A stretch of DNA of 8,626 nucleotides. Source: a virus. Its lineage: Monodnaviria; Loebvirae; Hofneiviricota; Faserviricetes; Tubulavirales; Inoviridae. Of this stretch, positions 1-8,626 are shown piece by piece. How positions within the stretch are numbered: the first letter of the stretch is position 1; the number at the start of each line of letters is the position of its first letter. The notes under the pieces are model-generated. The model ran no database searches. It had not been told where the DNA came from and saw nothing but the letters and a program-made list of their open reading frames with translations. The stretch covers positions 1 through 8,626 of the IMG/VR virus record IMGVR_UViG_2663762939_000001; one strand, 5' to 3'. Both the position numbers and the translations under genes were made by a program.

Positions 1-15
1 TACATTATGCGCACC
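1..15 (-). other. Partial dif-like XerC/XerD recombination site (XerC arm plus first 4 nt of central region), truncated by the window edge
   Basis: Reverse complement of 1-15 is GGTGCGCATAATGTA, identical to the E. coli dif XerC-binding arm GGTGCGCATAA plus TGTA of the central region (dif = GGTGCGCATAA-TGTATA-TTATGTTAAAT). The rest of the site would lie beyond position 1. Confidence 0.6.
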
Positions 16-395
16 AATGGTAAGGATGGCAGAATCTGGCGGGAATCGTTGACACTTGGCGTCAACTGGCTACTATCGATAGTGATTCAAAATCATCCGT
101 TTCTCCAAACGAATCAGAATCAAATGTCTGTCAGCAGTAAGTGAACGGCCTGACCTCACCAATCAGGCCTGTTCATCCAGTTGCAGTTGGTAAATCTGTA
201 CCTGATACATGAAACCTTCCCCAGAAATACAGCCACAATGTCAGATAAGATGAACGCTGCCGCGCCGAATCAGCTATAACGCTCAAAATGAAAACTGTAC
301 GGCTTGGCCAACCCCGGACAGCAACAAAACGAGTTTTGTCACTGACCGGAGTTTACGATAACTTCGTAAGCATTAAATTTTAGCGGCTAAAAAGT

Positions 396-644
396 TCACC
401 ACCACCATGCAAACGGCTTGTTACTGACAGGAAATGCGATACCGTCAGCATCACGACCACGCAAGACCTGATTAAGAAGCTTTCTGACTTCACGGCGCTC
501 TGGCCGGGTCATCATCATATTGCGATACCAGGACGGTGATTTATCAAACCACCTAGAACAACTGGTAAAATGTGAACCAACACGACGGTAAGACTTCATG
601 CGACCACCGGGAAGTCGATCGCGCACCCTGCTTTTTACAGACAT
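396..644 (-). CDS. Hypothetical small basic protein (82 aa, Arg/Lys/Trp-rich), function unknown
   Basis: ATG at 644..642 preceded on the minus strand by AGAGG and a 6-nt spacer (plus 645-656). The protein is strongly basic with no motif I recognise. It sits between gIV and the dif-like end. Confidence 0.4.
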   Translation of the reverse strand: MSVKSRVRDRLPGGRMKSYRRVGSHFTSCSRWFDKSPSWYRNMMMTRPERREVRKLLNQVLRGRDADGIAFPVSNKPFAWWW

Positions 645-794: not shown

Positions 795-2060
795 TCAAAG
801 CGTGCGAATAATATGAGCGGTCAGCAGAACATACATAATGCGTTGCTCATTACTGTCAGCTTTACTCCTGAAAAGCCAGCCAATCACCGGAATTTTACTG
901 ATAAACGGTACAGAACGGTCAGCATTGCTGGATGATGAATCAATCAGCCCACCAAGTAAGAGCGTCTGGCCATCCTTAATCTGAACTGTTGTCTGTATCT
1001 GACGCTGGTTCGTAATAATATCAGATGCCTGGTCATCGTTGCTGATGGAATCAGCGCGGGTATCAATAGTAAGTACAAGCTGGCCGTTCCCCATAACAAC
1101 AGGCGTCACCTTCAAAGATACGCCAACATCATGACGTTCAATGGTCTGAAACGGATTATTTACCCCGGCAGATTCACCCGTAACTTTACCCGTGATAAAG
1201 GGTACATTTTTACCAACAGAAATATAGCCTGTCTGACCAGACTGGGTAAGAATCCGGGGCGTTGAAATCACCTTAGACCGGGAGTTACTCTGCACCGCAC
1301 GCAGGGATACGGCCAGAACATTACCATCAAAAATGCCAAAAGAGCCGCCGGCAGTCGACAATGCGCTACCCAATGCTGAAGTATTAAAGCCCCCTGCTAC
1401 TTTATGCCCGGATGCAGAACCGGCTGCAAACGACAAATCAACACCATCCGACAGACTGGTTTCAAACATCAGCGACTGAATCAATACTTGGTCACGGGCA
1501 ACATCCACAGAATTGATAAAATCGGACAGAACCGGCAGCAGCTCGTCAGGAGCAGAAACAATCAGCGAGTTATTACCTGGATAATCCACGACATTACCAC
1601 CGCCATTAGAATCAAGATAAATTTTAACCAGTTGCTGAACATCGGACGATCTAACTTTTGTCAGCTTAAAATTTCTGACCGTAAGCGCCACAGGTACTGG
1701 CTGGTAAGATGGCTCAGAAGGAAAAGTATCATAAGACTGGTTATCAGAATCATCGGAACCCGAAACCATCTGCGAAGGTAATTTAGACGGCAAAGAGACT
1801 ACCGCAGGATTGCCAGAAAGCATGACAAACCCGTTAGCATTCAGAACAGACTTAAAGAAATCATCAATATTTGTTGGATTAACATCAGCATTAAATACGG
1901 TTACATTTCCTTTAACATCAGGATTAACAATAACAGGCTTGCCAGTTTTTGAAGAATACCACTGAACAAATGAGCGAACAGATGAATTATTTAAATTAAC
2001 AGTTTCAGCAGAAACGCAGAATGAACAGGCAAATAAAAAAGCAACAATAACAGAGCGCAT
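795..2060 (-). CDS. Secretin, filamentous phage export channel (pIV-like, GspD/PulD secretin family)
   Basis: The C-terminal region (…GGLIDSSSSNADRSVPFISKIPVIGWLFRSKADSNEQ…) resembles a secretin domain. An internal ATG at 2060 gives a signal-peptide-like N-terminus (MRSVIVAFLFACSFCVSA) with AGGAG about 10 nt upstream. The ORF extends to an ATG at 2153, but that start would overlap gI by about 86 nt. Last gene of the Ff-like order. Confidence 0.8.
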   Translation of the reverse strand: MRSVIVAFLFACSFCVSAETVNLNNSSVRSFVQWYSSKTGKPVIVNPDVKGNVTVFNADVNPTNIDDFFKSVLNANGFVMLSGNPAVVSLPSKLPSQMVSGSDDSDNQSYDTFPSEPSYQPVPVALTVRNFKLTKVRSSDVQQLVKIYLDSNGGGNVVDYPGNNSLIVSAPDELLPVLSDFINSVDVARDQVLIQSLMFETSLSDGVDLSFAAGSASGHKVAGGFNTSALGSALSTAGGSFGIFDGNVLAVSLRAVQSNSRSKVISTPRILTQSGQTGYISVGKNVPFITGKVTGESAGVNNPFQTIERHDVGVSLKVTPVVMGNGQLVLTIDTRADSISNDDQASDIITNQRQIQTTVQIKDGQTLLLGGLIDSSSSNADRSVPFISKIPVIGWLFRSKADSNEQRIMYVLLTAHIIRTL

Positions 2061-2067
2061 AATAATA

Positions 2068-3162
2068 TTACTCCTGACAGGTAACAGTCTGTAAATAACG
2101 GCCTTTTCTAATAACAATACGACAGGCATCTTTAATATCAACGAAATAACCATCTTTAATCAAATCAAAATACTGATATTTCATACCTTTAGCATCAACA
2201 AACGTAACGGAAACGTCAAAGCCAAGTTGTGAAAAAGAATTAATAGAAAGTCGGGGTAAGTCACTGGACGAATCAGGCGTTACCGCCCTCGCCTGTTCAG
2301 CATAAGCAGATTTAATAGCTGAGATTTCATCAACATTCTTTCCAGACTGGAGCCAGAAACCAAGCCCAAGCCCCAGCGCCAAAAAAGAAAGCATTAATAT
2401 AAGACGGTTCGATTTGCGAAAATAAATTTTAGTGAGGCGCATATAATAATTAAATCCTCTGTGAACAGAAAATTGACCGTGCGTGATAAATGGTGGTAAA
2501 AGCGAAAATGCGCCATGAGGATAATTATCTGTGAACGCTTGTTTGGTATTGTAAGCAGAATAAAGAGATTTTCCTGTATATATCCATTTATCAACAGTGA
2601 TTGAATTAACATTATCACCATATTTGACAATGCCAAAGTGTACCTTTGGTAAAGAAAATCGAGCCCCTGAAACCAAATTCATAATGGAGCCAACAAAAGG
2701 AATGTTTAATTTATCTGAACGGCGACAATAAACAACATGCTCAGCAAGCGCCAGACGAGCTTGCTTATCCATTATCGAAATATCCTGAATCAAAAATATA
2801 ATATCCCAGCCTAATTTTCTGGCATGTAAAAACCAGTCAATAACAGGTTGTCTGTCTTTATCACCCCATGAGCGGGAATTAAACCAAGTACCACATTCAT
2901 CAAGTACAAGGAGGCCATTACGGGATTCATCGTAAGATGTATTCCCAATACCAATAGCAAGTAAATCATTTAATGAAGGCTTGTCAGGAACGCGAATAAC
3001 GCGCGTTTTTTTCGCATAACGCCCAACCATAGGCATATTATGCAATTTAAGGTCAAGATTAGTGGCAACAGGACAACCCTTAGCAAGTCTTTCCTGTATT
3101 CTGGAAACACTAACAAGTGTCTTGCCTGAGCCTAATTTGCCTGTTACTACATGAACCGCCAT
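2068..3162 (-). CDS. Zot-like assembly ATPase (pI-like, zonula occludens toxin family)
   Basis: N-terminal Walker A motif GKLGSGKT (residues 8-15), a single hydrophobic TM segment (LILMLSFLALGLGLGFWL) and a C-terminal periplasmic-type domain. Size 364 aa and position between gVI and gIV fit pI/Zot. Confidence 0.8.
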   Translation of the reverse strand: MAVHVVTGKLGSGKTLVSVSRIQERLAKGCPVATNLDLKLHNMPMVGRYAKKTRVIRVPDKPSLNDLLAIGIGNTSYDESRNGLLVLDECGTWFNSRSWGDKDRQPVIDWFLHARKLGWDIIFLIQDISIMDKQARLALAEHVVYCRRSDKLNIPFVGSIMNLVSGARFSLPKVHFGIVKYGDNVNSITVDKWIYTGKSLYSAYNTKQAFTDNYPHGAFSLLPPFITHGQFSVHRGFNYYMRLTKIYFRKSNRLILMLSFLALGLGLGFWLQSGKNVDEISAIKSAYAEQARAVTPDSSSDLPRLSINSFSQLGFDVSVTFVDAKGMKYQYFDLIKDGYFVDIKDACRIVIRKGRYLQTVTCQE

Positions 3163-3504
3163 TTAAATCACCCTGTTTGCATAATCAAGAAATTTTTGTT
3201 TTAAATCGAAAACAAAAACACTGATACGAGTAACCATAATAACGTTAACACACGCCTGAAAATGGTCAGGCAATACAGATGCCATTAAATGAGAAAAATC
3301 AGCGGGTAACCCGTTATACATGACCTCAGCAAGATACTGCATTAAAAGCGTAACAGTTGTTGTAATTAGCGCGACCAATGCAACCGCTATTAAACCTGTT
3401 TTGGTTGCAAGCCGAGCTAAAAAACTTGCAACATAGCCAATAAGCAAAGGAACAAGACCAATAAGAAAACGCAACAATGCAGGAATACCTAATAATAAAG
3501 GCAT
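3163..3504 (-). CDS. Minor coat protein, pVI-like (hydrophobic, about 113 aa)
   Basis: Highly hydrophobic protein lying between gIII and gI, as in Ff phages. The ATG at 3504 shares a base with the gIII stop (TGATG) and has GGTGG upstream. A GTG at 3507 is an alternative start. Confidence 0.55.
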   Translation of the reverse strand: MPLLLGIPALLRFLIGLVPLLIGYVASFLARLATKTGLIAVALVALITTTVTLLMQYLAEVMYNGLPADFSHLMASVLPDHFQACVNVIMVTRISVFVFDLKQKFLDYANRVI

Positions 3505-4748
3505 CACTCACCACCTTTACGAAGCAATGAAGTTAAAGAAGTAAAGACATACCAGAACGTAAGGCAATAAAAAACCCATGAAAGAGCATCTTTAATAGTC
3601 AGCAATTTATCGCAACCAATATCAATCTGATAAACCTCTCCGGGAAAAATGATAAAATCAGAACAACCATTACCATTAGGTAAATTGGGCAACATAGCAC
3701 CTTTATTTAAGAAAGCCTCCCATAACGCACCATGAGAATCCTTTGCAATTCCTAATTCAGATTCAGCTAAAGTGGAAGCGCTATCTAATTCAGAATCCCC
3801 CTTCCCATAACGGGAATCACCGCCAGAAGGATCAGCAAAACGTCCGGCTCCGCGAGTAAGGTTATTTATAGCGTCACCAAGACGATTTATATTATTTTTA
3901 GTCTGTTCATCAGCCGACTTTTTATCATCAGATGAGGTGTCTTTTTCTGTTAACTTATCATGAATCTCACTGGCAATTTTAGGTGAAGCACCTTCGATAG
4001 CTGACTGAATATCTCCTTTGGTAATACTTGAGTCATTACCACCGCCAGAACCGCCGCCTGAGTTACCACCGCCTGTATCACCTCCTCCAGTATCACCACC
4101 CCCCGTATCCCCGCCTCCAGTATCACTGCCATCGCCAGCAGGAGAAGAAGGCTTATCTGAAGGATCGGCTACGGTTCCGGTAGGCTTCCATGTCGCAGCA
4201 CAAACAGTGCCATCATTCTGGCAAACAATGACGCCAGTGGCCTCATATTCACAACCGTTATAATAAATATAACGATCACCGTCATAAGAATAGACATTAT
4301 TGAATACACCTTCTTCGGGTGGTTTAGCTTCACAAATCTCTTCAGGCGTAGGCTCGGAAGGTTTTTCATCAGGAATAGATCGTTGAATATCACCTATAAT
4401 ATAAGCGGTTAAAGTCCAGTATTTATCTTTCTGGCCTGGAGAGTCGCTGTAAGTACAAGCGTCAGAAAACACAAGACGGAATTCAGAGTTAGGCCATACT
4501 CCCTCATAAGTTGGTTTAACCTGAGTAAAAACACCCTGAGCACTGTCTTTAGCACCCTGACAAGCAGAAGCCTGCATCGCTGCATCAATATAATAAACAG
4601 TTTGTTTAGCGCCATCTTGGTTGGTTATTTGCTTACTTTCAGCATATGCAGAGCTTTGAAAAGTAGATTTAGTAATGCTTTCCCATGAATCAGCATATGA
4701 AAAAGAAGAAATAAGAATAGCGGAAATGATTAATATATTCCTTTTCAT
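3504..4748 (-). CDS. Adsorption / minor coat protein, pIII-like, with signal peptide and Gly-rich linker
   Basis: Signal-peptide-like N-terminus ([19 protein letters not shown]), Cys-containing N-terminal domains, a (GGGDT)n/GGGS linker at residues ~205-239 and a hydrophobic C-terminal anchor ([15 protein letters not shown]). Follows gVIII as gIII does in Ff phages. Confidence 0.75.
4032..4136 (-). repeat. Tandem 15-nt codon repeat encoding the Gly-rich (GGGDT)x4[12 protein letters not shown] linker inside gIII
   Basis: Direct periodic repeats are visible in the DNA (…ccgcctccagtatcaccacc… units) and in the translation. The plus-strand Pro-rich ORF 4018-4263 is its antisense shadow. Confidence 0.7.
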
Positions 4749-4793: not shown

Positions 4794-5036
4794 TTAAACT
4801 GCTTTGGAAGCGAATTTTTTAAAAATACGAATGGCAAGGCCTGCACCAACCACAGCAACAACGACAGGCCATACTTTACCAATAAGATCATTTGCCTGAG
4901 TCAGCAATGCATCCATTGCCTGACCTGCATAATCAGTCCCGCCTGTAGTTCCATCAGCCGCAAAAGAACTGGCAGAAACAAAAAGAGCTGTTGAAGCTAC
5001 TGCAATTTTAGATTTAACAAAAGACAAAACTTTCAT
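4794..5036 (-). CDS. Major coat protein, pVIII-like
   Basis: 80-aa precursor with a signal peptide (…VSASSFA|ADGTT), an acidic mature N-terminus, a hydrophobic core (VWPVVVAVVGAGLAIRIF) and a basic C-terminus (KKFASKAV). GGAG lies upstream of the ATG at 5036. Confidence 0.8.
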   Translation of the reverse strand: MKVLSFVKSKIAVASTALFVSASSFAADGTTGGTDYAGQAMDALLTQANDLIGKVWPVVVAVVGAGLAIRIFKKFASKAV

Positions 5037-5055: not shown

Positions 5056-5151
5056 TTACATTAAGCGGTCAGAAAATGATTTAAATGAACCGACCGCATA
5101 GAAAAGGGCAAAACCGAAGGTATAAGCCCCGAAAAAATAAGCTATATACAT
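5056..5151 (-). CDS. Small hydrophobic virion protein, pIX-like (31 aa)
   Basis: Hand translation of the minus strand gives MYIAYFFGAYTFGFALFYAVGSFKSFSDRLM. The ATG overlaps the stop of the upstream small ORF (TAATG). Size and position between gV and gVIII match Ff gVII/gIX. Not in the supplied ORF track because it is too short. Confidence 0.45.
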   Translation of the reverse strand: MYIAYFFGAYTFGFALFYAVGSFKSFSDRLM

Positions 5152-5237
5152 TAACGAAAAACCCCCGCAGTAATTGCGCCGAGGCCAAAAGAGATAACAA
5201 TGCCTGACGCTATTAATATTTGTATAACATCAGCCAT
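5151..5237 (-). CDS. Small hydrophobic virion protein, pVII-like (28 aa)
   Basis: Hand translation gives MADVIQILIASGIVISFGLGAITAGVFR. It starts 2 nt after the gV-like stop and is coupled to the next small ORF through a TAATG overlap. Confidence 0.45.
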   Translation of the reverse strand: MADVIQILIASGIVISFGLGAITAGVFR

Positions 5238-5239
5238 AT

Positions 5240-5557
5240 TTAACCTTTTATTTCAGTGATTCCACCATCAGATGAAATGTTATAAGTTACCCCCTCCCTA
5301 CCTTCCATTGACCATACACGAACATAAACGGGGATCTGAACTAACTTTCCGATAAAGCTGTTAGCCTGATTCATTACACCGGAATTCACCAAAGCTTGTG
5401 ACACACGAATAATAATCTGGTCTTGCTTGGTACCACCAAAGCCATCAGGGGTCTCTAAGCCAATACCAATTTCATTATAATAACCCTGCCCATTAATTTT
5501 ATTACGCTGACGAGCACCAAGCATCTTACCTTTCACGAAAAGACCATAATTAGACAT
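5240..5557 (-). CDS. Putative ssDNA-binding protein (gV-like), assigned by position
   Basis: 105-aa protein directly downstream of the replication initiator, with a strong RBS (AGGAGA, 5-nt spacer). The assignment rests on synteny and size, not on a recognised motif. Confidence 0.5.
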   Translation of the reverse strand: MSNYGLFVKGKMLGARQRNKINGQGYYNEIGIGLETPDGFGGTKQDQIIIRVSQALVNSGVMNQANSFIGKLVQIPVYVRVWSMEGREGVTYNISSDGGITEIKG

Positions 5558-5568
5558 ATCACTCTCCT

Positions 5569-6633
5569 TTAGTGCCAGCTACTGGCATGTGAAATACGGT
5601 TGTAATCGAAAATTAAACCTTTCTCATAAACCCATGATGGAATTTTGGCTGGTTTAGCCTCAAGTGTTCTTACTAATGGAACAATATTATTTGAATCAGG
5701 GGATTCACAATAAAAATTAATATCTATCCCAAAAGACAGTAATTCTTTACGATGCCTGTAAAATGTTGGCTTTGGAAGCATTTCTTTCATATTTGCGCCC
5801 TGCTTCCATAACAAATATGTAGACTGTATTTTTCTTGGGAGATTAATTATCTTTTCATCAGTTAATATAGTATTTTGATTCATTTCTATTCTCCCTACAT
5901 AGTCAGAGAATACTTTATTAGGCGTCTCAATATTCCAGTTTTTACCAAGCGTAAGATTCAAATCAATTAATTCGGTTGTTCTTAATGTTAATTCAATACG
6001 TAATTTATCTTTTGACCAATCCAGTAAACCAGCGTTAACAAATTCATCTGCTATCTGGTGCCCTTTTTTTCCAGATGTATGCTCATCATATTTAGAGTAA
6101 AATTTCAGGCTCCAACGACGGGAGTTTTTTCCCAAATAGACCGTTCCCCCTTTGCCACAGGCGCGACCATGACGAGTTTTTGCTTTAAACTCTGCGGCAT
6201 AAAGCCATGCCCGCACATTTTCCAATGTTGATAATGAATACATGTAATTAATATCAACACGGGAAATCTTATATTGCCCTGTCATTACCTGACGATAGGA
6301 CGGAAGGTCATGGGGAATATGAAGTAATGCCAGTATTCTCGCGTAAGCTGTCAATACCAGTCCTTGCAAATCGTCGGAACCAATAACCGAATGTCCCTGA
6401 AGAAATTTTGACGGATTACCATCAATATAAAGATGTGTTGCCCGGCCTTCGCCATCGGATCCAACTGATCTTACTTTCATTGTAGATTCGTACGAACCGC
6501 GAACAGTCAACCGTTTTACTGTTTCCCACTCCACTGCACCATCAGCATCAACGCTGACGACACTACCAGCCGGTAACGGTTGGTGCGTGCAAGGCAGGAT
6601 TCCAGTAAACCAGTCGATCATAAGTAGCCACAC
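5569..6633 (-). CDS. Rolling-circle replication initiation protein (gII / RstA-like)
   Basis: 354-aa protein at the head of the minus-strand module, resembling phage/plasmid replication initiators. The track start at 6633 is GTG; the first ATG is at 6621 (MIDWFTG…), so the exact start is uncertain. Confidence 0.75.
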   Translation of the reverse strand: MWLLMIDWFTGILPCTHQPLPAGSVVSVDADGAVEWETVKRLTVRGSYESTMKVRSVGSDGEGRATHLYIDGNPSKFLQGHSVIGSDDLQGLVLTAYARILALLHIPHDLPSYRQVMTGQYKISRVDINYMYSLSTLENVRAWLYAAEFKAKTRHGRACGKGGTVYLGKNSRRWSLKFYSKYDEHTSGKKGHQIADEFVNAGLLDWSKDKLRIELTLRTTELIDLNLTLGKNWNIETPNKVFSDYVGRIEMNQNTILTDEKIINLPRKIQSTYLLWKQGANMKEMLPKPTFYRHRKELLSFGIDINFYCESPDSNNIVPLVRTLEAKPAKIPSWVYEKGLIFDYNRISHASSWH

Positions 6634-6792: not shown

Positions 6793-7239
6793 ATGGGCAA
6801 CAATGAGCATGATGATATGGCGGACAAGCAGAGAGCAGAACGTATCAAAAAGGTAATTCTGGAAAACTCGACTTATGAAGAACTGGCCGAGAAAACCGGT
6901 ATTAGCGTTAGCACACTGGTCAGAATAGCGTCCGGCAAAACTGAGCCTAAATTCAGTGACATAATTCAGATAGCTAAAATTACGGGTGCAGACTTGAACA
7001 CCCTTGCTTATGGCTATGCTATTGATGTTAAAGAAGAAGCTACTGAAAGGAAGTTAATCACTTCCGCAGACGGTTACACTGATGAAGAAACCACTAACGC
7101 CCACAATTTCATTGTGTGGAACATCAGAACACTGAATAAACAAGATATTCTGGCTCTCTCAAGGCAAGTTTCTGCATTAAGTTCATATACTTACAGTACG
7201 AAAATGTTTATGAAAAAAGTAGTGTCAGGCGAAGATTAA
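6793..7239 (+). CDS. HTH (XRE/Cro-C1 type) transcriptional regulator, candidate phage repressor
   Basis: The N-terminal region (…TYEELAEKTGISVSTLVRIASGKTEPKFSDIIQIAKITGADLNTLAYG) resembles a helix-turn-helix XRE domain, followed by a C-terminal extension of about 70 aa. It is transcribed divergently from gII, like RstR in CTXphi. Confidence 0.75.
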   Translation: MGNNEHDDMADKQRAERIKKVILENSTYEELAEKTGISVSTLVRIASGKTEPKFSDIIQIAKITGADLNTLAYGYAIDVKEEATERKLITSADGYTDEETTNAHNFIVWNIRTLNKQDILALSRQVSALSSYTYSTKMFMKKVVSGED

Positions 7240-7296: not shown

Positions 7297-7338
7297 CTTT
7301 ATTGTGTGAATTTTGAACAGTGAAAAAGGATCAAAAGG

Positions 7339-7761
7339 ATGAGTAGAAATAACGAAACAAGCGGCGTTGAACTGGTTGTCGTGGGCGTATTTGCTTTCTG
7401 TCTGGCAGTTGTTGCCTGGCTAATGAAAACTTTCGATGTTGAATGGCAAACAGCACTGGAAACTGCGCCTGGCCTGATAGTCTGGCTGCTTGTTGTCGGT
7501 GCGGGGATCTTTTTCGGGATCAAAATGGAAACTGGCCTTATTCGCTGGGGTGCTCCACTGGCGATCGCCCTTCTGATTCCGGTATTCAAGCCAATTCTTA
7601 AGGAAGCTGCCGGAGTTCGTGAAACGGGTGGGCTGGTTTTCGATGATATGGTTTCGTGGTATGGAACTGGCTGGGGAATGTCTCTGATGTTCTTCGGGAT
7701 TCTTATTGTCGGATATGGCCTGCTTTATTGGTGGCACAGAAGAAATTCATATTACTGGTAA
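7339..7761 (+). CDS. Small integral membrane protein (140 aa, about 4 predicted TM helices), function unknown
   Basis: Four hydrophobic segments (about residues 10-28, 44-62, 69-83, 112-131) and a Trp/Tyr-rich C-terminus. AAGGA lies about 9 nt upstream of the ATG. The overlapping minus-strand ORFs are low-complexity antisense shadows. Confidence 0.65.
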   Translation: MSRNNETSGVELVVVGVFAFCLAVVAWLMKTFDVEWQTALETAPGLIVWLLVVGAGIFFGIKMETGLIRWGAPLAIALLIPVFKPILKEAAGVRETGGLVFDDMVSWYGTGWGMSLMFFGILIVGYGLLYWWHRRNSYYW

Positions 7762-7789
7762 TCAATAAAACGTAGAAGAGAGGAAACAT

Positions 7790-8065
7790 ATGAAACTGAA
7801 TCCTGAGAAATACAATAGAAACATCACCCTGCTATGTCCTGTGTGCGGAAATACAGAGATGGAACACGAGGAAGAGTCTGAAGTCGTCAGATGTGTAGGC
7901 TGCGGGAAAGAATTTACTAATGATGAATTAATCCAAGAAAACGGGGTGAGTATTGACGCCCATGTAGATGAAATAAAAGAAGAGTTAACAAAAGACATTC
8001 AAAAACAGTTTGGTGACATGCTCAAAAAGGCATTTAAGGGAAGTAAGAATATAAGGATCAAATAA
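7790..8065 (+). CDS. Small zinc-ribbon protein (91 aa; CPVCG…CVGCG), function unknown
   Basis: Two CxxC pairs (C16/C19 and C35/C38) form a putative zinc ribbon, followed by a charged helical tail. Strong RBS (AGAGAGGAAACAT-ATG). The stop overlaps the next gene's start (TAATG). Confidence 0.65.
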   Translation: MKLNPEKYNRNITLLCPVCGNTEMEHEEESEVVRCVGCGKEFTNDELIQENGVSIDAHVDEIKEELTKDIQKQFGDMLKKAFKGSKNIRIK

Positions 8066-8544
8066 TGACAACAAGTGATGCCATCGCTTTAGCTGCGCTT
8101 GTAGTATCGATTTACACTATCATATCGTCAGAAATGAAATCGAGAAAAAGCGATAGAGAACAAAGGGTTATAAAGGATGAGCAAGACAGGTTACGTAAGT
8201 TGCTTCTGGAAAAAGAAACAAAGTCAGCAATTAATGAGATGAAAGCTGAGCTTGGTGCTCGCCTCGTAAAAATAGCCAAAAACAACTATAGGCTCAAGAT
8301 ATTTAATAGAGGGAGGGTTGAGGCTAAAAATATAGAGATTCATTTCCCTGATAACGATGGAAATGAATATCTTTCAATGCATGATGTAGAAGATAAATTT
8401 CCATATGAGGTATTACACCCGCAACATGGGATTGAAATTTTAGCGGGAATAAGCTTTGGAAGTAAAACTAAATACCGAATAAAACTCATATGGGATGACA
8501 ATTATAAAAGAAGAAATGAAGAGGAGTTTTTCATTTCTATATAA
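8065..8544 (+). CDS. N-terminally membrane-anchored protein (159 aa) with charged helical linker and beta-rich C-terminal domain, function unknown
   Basis: N-terminal hydrophobic helix (AIALAALVVSIYTIISS), a Lys/Glu-rich predicted coiled region, then a C-terminal domain. AAGGA RBS with 7-nt spacer. Translationally coupled to the zinc-ribbon gene. Confidence 0.65.
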   Translation: MTTSDAIALAALVVSIYTIISSEMKSRKSDREQRVIKDEQDRLRKLLLEKETKSAINEMKAELGARLVKIAKNNYRLKIFNRGRVEAKNIEIHFPDNDGNEYLSMHDVEDKFPYEVLHPQHGIEILAGISFGSKTKYRIKLIWDDNYKRRNEEEFFISI

Positions 8545-8574
8545 ATTGGTTCGCACAATGACGTTATGCTAAAG

Positions 8575-8612
8575 AGGCCGCTGCGGGATTCGATTTTCGC
8601 AGCGGCCTTTTC
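8575..8612 (+). terminator. GC-rich hairpin plus T-tract (candidate intrinsic terminator), core of a longer imperfect palindrome
   Basis: Stem AGGCCGCTGCG (8575-8585) / CGCAGCGGCCT (8598-8608), 12-nt loop, followed by TTTT (8608-8611). The arms extend imperfectly to 8562-8585 / 8598-8621, 21 of 24 matching. Confidence 0.5.
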
Positions 8613-8626
8613 AACATAACGAGTCG

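Follow-up and report, generated by a model that had tools for sequence, protein, structure and literature searches.

The window, by which we mean the whole stretch of 8,626 nucleotides analyzed here, represents with a probability of roughly 85% a single genome unit of an inovirus prophage that resembles CUS-1 and Ypfφ and resides in chromosomal dif, with its first 15 positions forming the XerC arm of a CTXφ-type attP. We observed the attP site, both prophage junctions, the empty target, the lack of an integrase, and the predicted fold of attP together with its conservation; by analogy with CTXφ, we infer that integration would use single-stranded DNA, involve catalysis by XerC only, be resolved by replication and be irreversible. 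This assignment fixes the exact ends and the integration logic of the prophage, i.e. a complete 8626-bp genome unit. Host-recombinase-dependent integration at dif is an already described feature, and the finding is correct but ordinary, adding no new kind of system.

Positions 1-15 of the window read tacattatgcgcacc. The reverse complement, GGTGCGCATAATGTA, comprises the XerC arm of E. coli dif followed by four bases, TGTA, from the start of its central region. Comparison with the tabulated 28-bp dif of E. coli K-12 and Y. pestis CO92 (GGTGCGCATAATGTATATTATGTTAAAT; PMC2731167) showed GGTGCGCATAATGTA to be identical to dif bases 1-15 of 28, confirming the exact match to the XerC arm and start of the central region that an earlier note on this DNA had claimed. 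The 15-mer had a single match within the window when up to three mismatches were permitted (0.17 in shuffles at the same looseness), and an exact copy on either strand is expected by chance only about 1.6e-5 times. The same 15-mer forms a direct repeat at both prophage ends in 11 loci (L001, L002, L131-L138, L140). XerC would be expected to cut between positions 5 and 4. The features of the window are listed in Table 1.

Table 1. Features of the window, with strands given as in the window
Feature	Position	Strand	Basis or remark
Phage XerC-binding arm GGTGCGCATAA plus TGTA overlap	5-15 plus 1-4	-	TGTA is the start of the dif central region
gIV-to-attP stretch: orf82 (396-644) plus ~380 nt non-coding	16-644	-	
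gIV (Secretin)	795-2060	-	Pfam
gI (Zot)	2068-3162	-	Pfam
gVI (DUF5455)	3163-3504	-	Pfam
gIII (G3P)	3504-4748	-	Pfam
gVIII (Gp8)	4794-5036	-	Pfam
gIX	5056-5151	-	L131 gene calls
gVII	5151-5237	-	L131 gene calls
gV (G5P)	5240-5557	-	Pfam
gII (Phage_CRI plus G2P_X_C)	5569-6621	-	Pfam
Divergent HTH (Cro/CI-type) repressor, placed like CTXφ rstR	6793-7239	+	94.6% protein identity to Y. pestis Ypfφ locus
Accessory/cargo ORFs: 140-aa membrane protein, 91-aa zinc-ribbon protein, 159-aa protein	7339-8544	+	
Inverted dif-like site 2: GGTTCGCACAA (9/11 XerC arm) - TGACG - TTATGCTAAAG (9/11 XerD arm)	8548-8574	+	
Perfect 11-bp G+C-rich stem with 12-nt loop	8575-8585 / 8598-8608 (region 8575-8608)	unstranded	Brings both dif-like sites together
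Rest of attP site 1: XerD-like arm TTATGTTGAAA (9/11 to dif) plus CGACTCG	8609-8619 plus 8620-8626	-	Sequence; tandem/circular junctions

An exact look-up of the gIII protein retrieved eight loci (L131-L138). One of them (L131; GCA_001032735.1, KQ088931.1) matches the window at every one of its 8626 bases (100%), and three others (L132, L136, L137) are 99.8-99.97% identical. Extending the sequence leftwards, as the earlier note had proposed, we found that TATTATGTTAAAT, directly left of window position 1, completes a perfect 28-bp dif in L131 and the seven further loci of this set, as well as in L002 and in E. coli UM146 (L140). The second dif-like site, sought at the opposite prophage end, was likewise present: the far junction consists of the host XerC arm, TGTA, CGACTCG and TTATGTTGAAA, a hybrid site, in L002, L131-L138 and L140. 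Given this layout, the 15 bases that open the window recur immediately past its end.

When the host flanks of L136 were fused via one 28-bp dif, an uninterrupted match to the resulting sequence, representing the empty site, was present in 3465 of the 5426 complete E. coli genomes searched. The insertion therefore lies exactly inside chromosomal dif, as is characteristic of an IMEX (integrative mobile element exploiting Xer). Relatives at ~90-95% DNA identity occur in 670 of the same 5426 genomes, and the chromosomal copies examined adjoin hipBA. Taken together, both junctions, the empty site and the lack of an integrase (see below) support the proposal of a XerCD-integrating inovirus with its boundary, or attP, at the window edge. 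The accompanying statement that the window begins inside the site stands insofar as the sequence starts in a half-site, but was incomplete, in that a single attP is divided between the two window ends. The window is therefore a circular permutation of exactly one phage genome.

With the window end joined to its start, site 1 on the minus strand reads GGTGCGCATAA - TGTACGACTCG - TTATGTTGAAA, in which the arms match dif at 11/11 and 9/11 positions, respectively, and the spacer has 11 nt. Site 2 lies 34 nt away in inverted orientation, has a spacer of 5 nt (TGACG) and constitutes the bottom strand of the folded attP(+). The last cargo stop codon is found 4 nt ahead of site 2. This anatomy corresponds to that of the CTXφ class, i.e. 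two inverted dif-like sites in the phage genome, spacers (11 nt and 5 nt) that would each be unsuited to duplex Xer recombination, and identity to the dif central region only beside the XerC arm (TGTA is shared with TGTATA, and CGACTCG is unrelated). A search of the window against Rfam at the gathering threshold gave no match. For annotation, 8548-8626 plus 1-15 should be treated as one feature.

The inovirus core genes gII to gIV all lie on the minus strand, which is hence the phage (+) strand. Folded as single-stranded DNA, the 94 nt of the phage (+) strand reached -27.5 kcal/mol (z = -7.8; 0/200 shuffles as good), compared to -25.1 kcal/mol for the opposite strand; in a 400-nt context, the hairpin was kept and lengthened by 3 bp. 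The prediction is a forked hairpin, in which the XerC arms pair together, the XerD arms pair together and the central region consists of TG/CA and CG/CG pairs around a T·T mismatch and a 6-nt bulge. The CTXφ-class trait of a (+) strand folding into duplex XerC and XerD arms is thus present as a computational prediction.

The same structure was found in IMG/VR contigs and in genomes labelled Y. pestis, Phytobacter, Enterobacter adelaidei and Erwinia tracheiphila; a match in a MAG labelled Nanosynbacter is a probable contaminant. Pattern scans, in which either the top arm or the 9-bp core of the stem was fixed, yielded 26 distinct variants. Of the cells in their alignment, 96.4% are paired in the standard way, compared to 29-54% in slid registers. 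Both sides changed at four pairs; as most hairpin positions are invariant, support from covariation is modest. None of the 26 variants departs from the TGT that follows the XerC arm or the CG that precedes the XerD arm. Mean column identity falls to 0.65 in the bulge and 0.73 in the loop, and the arms barely change, with the caveat that the top XerC arm of the hybrid junction comes from the host in prophages. In 25/26 variants, folding is more stable on the (+) strand, and three conserved G·T wobbles turn into A·C mismatches on the complementary strand. Conservation, covariation and strand-asymmetric wobbles provide support, at the level of sequence, for the long-proposed folded single-strand integration of CUS-1/Ypfφ-type phages. 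The XerD-like arm TTATGTTGAAA (8609-8619, minus strand) is nearly invariant among the variants and bears a G at position 8, as does TTATGTTGAGG of CTXφ attP1; in the folds of 26/26 variants, this G is engaged in a conserved G·T wobble.

Based on these results, we suggest that on the packaged (+) single strand, corresponding to the minus strand of the window, site 1 and site 2 would pair to form a forked hairpin that mimics dif and would be bound by host XerC and XerD. XerC would then cut after GGTGCGCATAA in the hairpin and in chromosomal dif, and one strand pair would be swapped, with the shared TGT(A) stabilizing the swap. Replication would turn this pseudo-Holliday junction into an integrated prophage. 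The product on the gIV side would be a perfect dif, in which the phage supplies the XerC arm and the host both the central region and the XerD arm, and the product on the hairpin side a dead hybrid site with an 11-bp spacer. With dif regenerated and the hybrid site dead, chromosome dimer resolution should be kept, and Xer-mediated excision would not be expected. The junctions are as predicted for the (+) strand, with the host XerC arm followed by TGTACGACTCG at one end and the phage XerC arm followed by host TGTATA and TTATGTTAAAT, i.e. a regenerated dif, at the other. A reaction of the (-) strand hairpin predicts a XerC arm followed by TGACG, which was not observed at the junctions. Counting against the suggested mechanism, the paired central region comprises 5 bp, not 6, and the L131 copy is single, with nothing but a decayed element ahead of it; on the CTXφ model, a lone copy would be unable to release virions.

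A further point against it is that the junction sequences fit a (+) single-strand hairpin and a double-stranded reaction at site 1 equally well. The duplex replicative form might thus recombine at site 1 in a reversible, VGJφ-type reaction, with site 2 and the stem-loop representing a terminator or being irrelevant. Indeed, the inner stem-loop followed by TTTTC on the plus strand resembles an intrinsic terminator of the cargo operon, and it may also serve as one; because a terminator scan did not flag the att stem-loop (its loop limit was 8 nt, compared to the 12-nt loop), this double role is proposed from inspection. We nevertheless consider a duplex reaction unlikely. The site 1 spacer of 11 bp is at odds with the 29-bp attP of VGJφ, and attP1 of CTXφ, with its 12-bp spacer, is reported to be unsuitable as a duplex (PMC4246890). 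A terminator would have no need for a site 2 that is dif-like in both arms (9/11 and 9/11) and pairs arm for arm with site 1. Moreover, both arms are conserved whereas bulge and loop drift, and the G·T wobbles favor one strand.

Still less probable, and in our judgment very unlikely, is that the 15 bases represent host dif at the boundary, and that a phage devoid of a XerC arm was inserted by a TLCφ-like, XerD-first reaction or by illegitimate recombination. While a single prophage sequence cannot tell which of the 15-mers is host-derived, tandem copies in relatives (L001, L015, L017, L091) can. The copy-to-copy junction equals window end plus window start in L001, L015 and Y. pestis L017, and L091 contains a matching phage-to-phage junction, but of its own hairpin variant. 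In addition, the complete hairpin is contained in the 127-nt terminal overlap of a circular metagenomic contig (L007), where the XerC arm and TGTA are the contig's own and lead into a variant bulge. As the 15-mer resides inside these tandem phage-phage junctions and in the L007 overlap, the XerC arm belongs to the phage. Furthermore, the XerD-like arm is good, and central identity is confined to the XerC side (TGT), the reverse of the TLCφ pattern (PMC4246890).

At the hybrid junction, L132 has AATGCGCATAA as its XerC arm (6107-6117), and L133 (6443-6453) and L135 (5725-5735) have GATGCGCATAA. The regenerated dif at the other end of these three loci has GGTGCGCATAA, unlike the hybrid-junction arm. 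This difference between hybrid and regenerated arms places the crossover 3' of arm position 3, and suggests that on integration the phage arm may replace the resident arm at the active dif.

Gene identities were taken from Pfam, and those of small genes from gene calls in the identical locus L131. No recombinase or transposase was detected in the window by Pfam, PHROGs or PADLOC, and the only ORFs exceeding 160 aa are gII, gIII, gI and gIV. Because no ORF of more than 160 aa is left unassigned and no recombinase domain was found, we conclude that an integrase is absent, as the earlier note had anticipated and as is typical of an IMEX. That the dif match is fortuitous, or that a phage recombinase uses another attachment site, has nothing beyond the shortness of the match to recommend it and is next to impossible in view of the expectation of 1.6e-5, the insertion exactly in dif and the lack of both an unassigned ORF >160 aa and a Pfam recombinase, and it was refuted by the junction data.

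The gIV side adjoins the site, as had been stated, in the sense that gIV is the nearest structural gene, with orf82 and ~380 nt of non-coding DNA in between. Strong hairpins are located between orf82 and the XerC arm, at 47-70 (GTTGACacttggcGTCAAC) and at 140-175 (12-bp stem, GAACGGCCTGAC...(T)CAGGCCTGTTC); they are candidate packaging-signal or origin elements. PADLOC and PHROGs assigned no function to orf82, orf140, orf91 or orf159. gIII contains a glycine-rich repeat linker, (GGGDT)n, at 3950-4260.

The hairpin also occurs apart from this phage backbone. Four loci (L005, L007, L010, L019) share only an 80-nt hairpin with the window at 84-91% DNA identity; the gIV proteins of L005, L007 and L010 are 26-28% identical to that of the window, and the sole protein match in L019 is to orf140 (34%). 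From these comparisons, the att module appears to be conserved or exchanged across distant inovirus lineages. In addition, the first 71 nt of the hairpin (site 2, the stem-loop and part of the XerD-like arm) are found at ~93% identity in 475 places on E. coli plasmids. In pAPEC-O1-ColBM (L139 2500-2625), the hairpin fragment comes directly after a gene of the STM4504/CBY_0614 family, with 51 nt of further sequence and remnants of IS200C/IS1 behind it. L131 has this truncated hairpin and the 51 nt as well, in the interval that separates hipA from the window phage (4737-4862), and also shares an 'ISNCY transposase'-like region with pAPEC-O1-ColBM. The truncated hairpin in L131 and on plasmids looks like a decayed older dif-inserted element that was putatively also carried onto plasmids.

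Between orf140 and the hairpin there is a hot spot for cargo, occupied in the window (7790-8544) by genes for the 91-aa zinc-ribbon and 159-aa proteins. It is alternatively occupied by a CAP12-PCTIR_TIR protein gene (L135 5827-6933) or, in other relatives, by genes for a PD-(D/E)XK nuclease, STM4504/CBY_0614 or a 'mobilome CxxCx(11)CxxC' protein; such cargo may represent defence or accessory genes. It is conceivable, if rather doubtful, that the compact att hairpin of ~94 nt does not belong to a particular phage lineage but serves as a portable recombination module with strand specificity. On this view, inoviruses with gIV proteins of only 26-28% identity have it in nearly unaltered form, it enables one phage (copies 99.8-100% identical) to occupy dif both in E. 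coli and in an enterobacterium other than E. coli, and truncated, cargo-linked copies have reached hundreds of plasmid records of E. coli. Under that assumption, it would be the exchange of the hairpin module, not of the backbone, that sets who lysogenizes at dif across Enterobacterales.

L132 and L137 carry the same phage as L131 and L136 (99.8-99.97%) at dif, with chromosomal surroundings other than those of E. coli. In 5426 E. coli genomes, the flanks of L132, L137 and L135 matched IS200 only, and those of L132 and L135 gave no match among deposited phages. This distribution suggests that the phage may recently have been transferred between genera via the conserved dif.

The earlier note had grouped the phage with CTXφ, VGJφ, CUS-1 and Ypfφ. 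This grouping holds for the use of host XerCD at dif, but the mechanisms of these phages differ, and the anatomy found here is of the CTXφ type, not that of VGJφ. In CTXφ, attP1 reads AGTGCGTATTA-TGTGGCGCGGCA-TTATGTTGAGG, its spacer being 12 nt long with TGT at the start, and attP2, with a 5-7 nt spacer, is inverted and ~90 bp from attP1 (PMC4246890, PMC3089051). Neither attP1 nor attP2 is usable as a duplex; they fold in (+) single-stranded DNA, and XerC exchanges one strand pair (PMC4246890, PMC3089051). Specificity stems from the bases beside the XerC arm, and replication resolves the junction, rendering the reaction irreversible (PMC4246890, PMC3089051). The window phage resembles CTXφ in its inverted site pair, with one over-long spacer beginning with TGT (12 nt in CTXφ, 11 nt here) and one short spacer (5-7 nt and 5 nt, respectively), in the lack of an integrase, in central identity only on the XerC side, in a regenerated dif plus a presumably dead hybrid, in a divergent repressor beside gII/rstA and, as far as its relatives are concerned, in tandem arrays. 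It differs in that the sites are 34 nt apart, compared to ~90 nt in CTXφ, and the hairpin comprises about 94-100 nt, compared to ~150 nt. Moreover, the arms match enterobacterial dif and not dif1 or dif2 of V. cholerae, the two phage backbones are not related in DNA sequence, and the mechanism, experimentally demonstrated for CTXφ, is inferred here.

With the VGJφ and TLCφ classes, the window phage has in common host XerCD, dif and the lack of an integrase. VGJφ uses a single 29-bp double-stranded attP in a reversible manner, and TLCφ has a degenerate XerD arm, with XerD acting first (PMC4246890). Instead of the single ~29-bp duplex attP with a 6-7 bp central region of the VGJφ class, we found two sites with spacers of 11 and 5 nt, and instead of the degenerate XerD arm and XerD-side central match of TLCφ, arms matching at 9/11 positions and XerC-side identity only. 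The presence of two sites, the lengths of their spacers and the well-matching XerD arms thus ruled out both types as class assignments.

Among deposited phage genomes, a megablast search with the whole window found only a 190-bp gIV match to IKe and Erwinia PEar phages, and the 94-nt hairpin found no match; CUS-1 and Ypfφ are evidently absent from this collection as phage records. Ypfφ integrates at dif, reconstitutes an intact dif at one end and occurs in tandem copies (PMC4266046). According to reviews, its virion genome contains a potential inverted pair of XerC/XerD sites, and Ypfφ and CUS-1φ are listed as members of the CTXφ class (PMC4266046, PMC3089051), an assignment worded there as 'may constitute' and 'revealed features for'. 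The window phage shares gene order and dif integration with Ypfφ of Y. pestis and CUS-1φ of E. coli O18:K1:H7, and it has the full filamentous gene set in Ff/CTX order, with 85-100% protein identity to UM146 and Y. pestis, as expected for the CUS-1/Ypfφ group. Y. pestis L017 and E. coli UM146 L140 both contain the 94-nt att hairpin without a single difference (100% identity).

The Y. pestis locus resembles the window in gII, gV and the repressor (about 95-97% protein identity) but differs in orf82 (84% protein identity), in the DNA of 249-716 (~80%) and in the lack of a DNA match to the cargo region 7320-8543. Conversely, orf140, orf91 and orf159 are 99-100% identical in UM146, which shows ~90% DNA identity across 83% of the window, but the UM146 prophage is without a counterpart of the window repressor or orf82, and its gIII aligned over 203/414 residues only, at 85%. 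This half-alignment suggests that a receptor-binding or anchoring domain may have been exchanged. On the basis of these comparisons, the window phage is a mosaic new member of the CUS-1/Ypfφ group that is neither phage itself.
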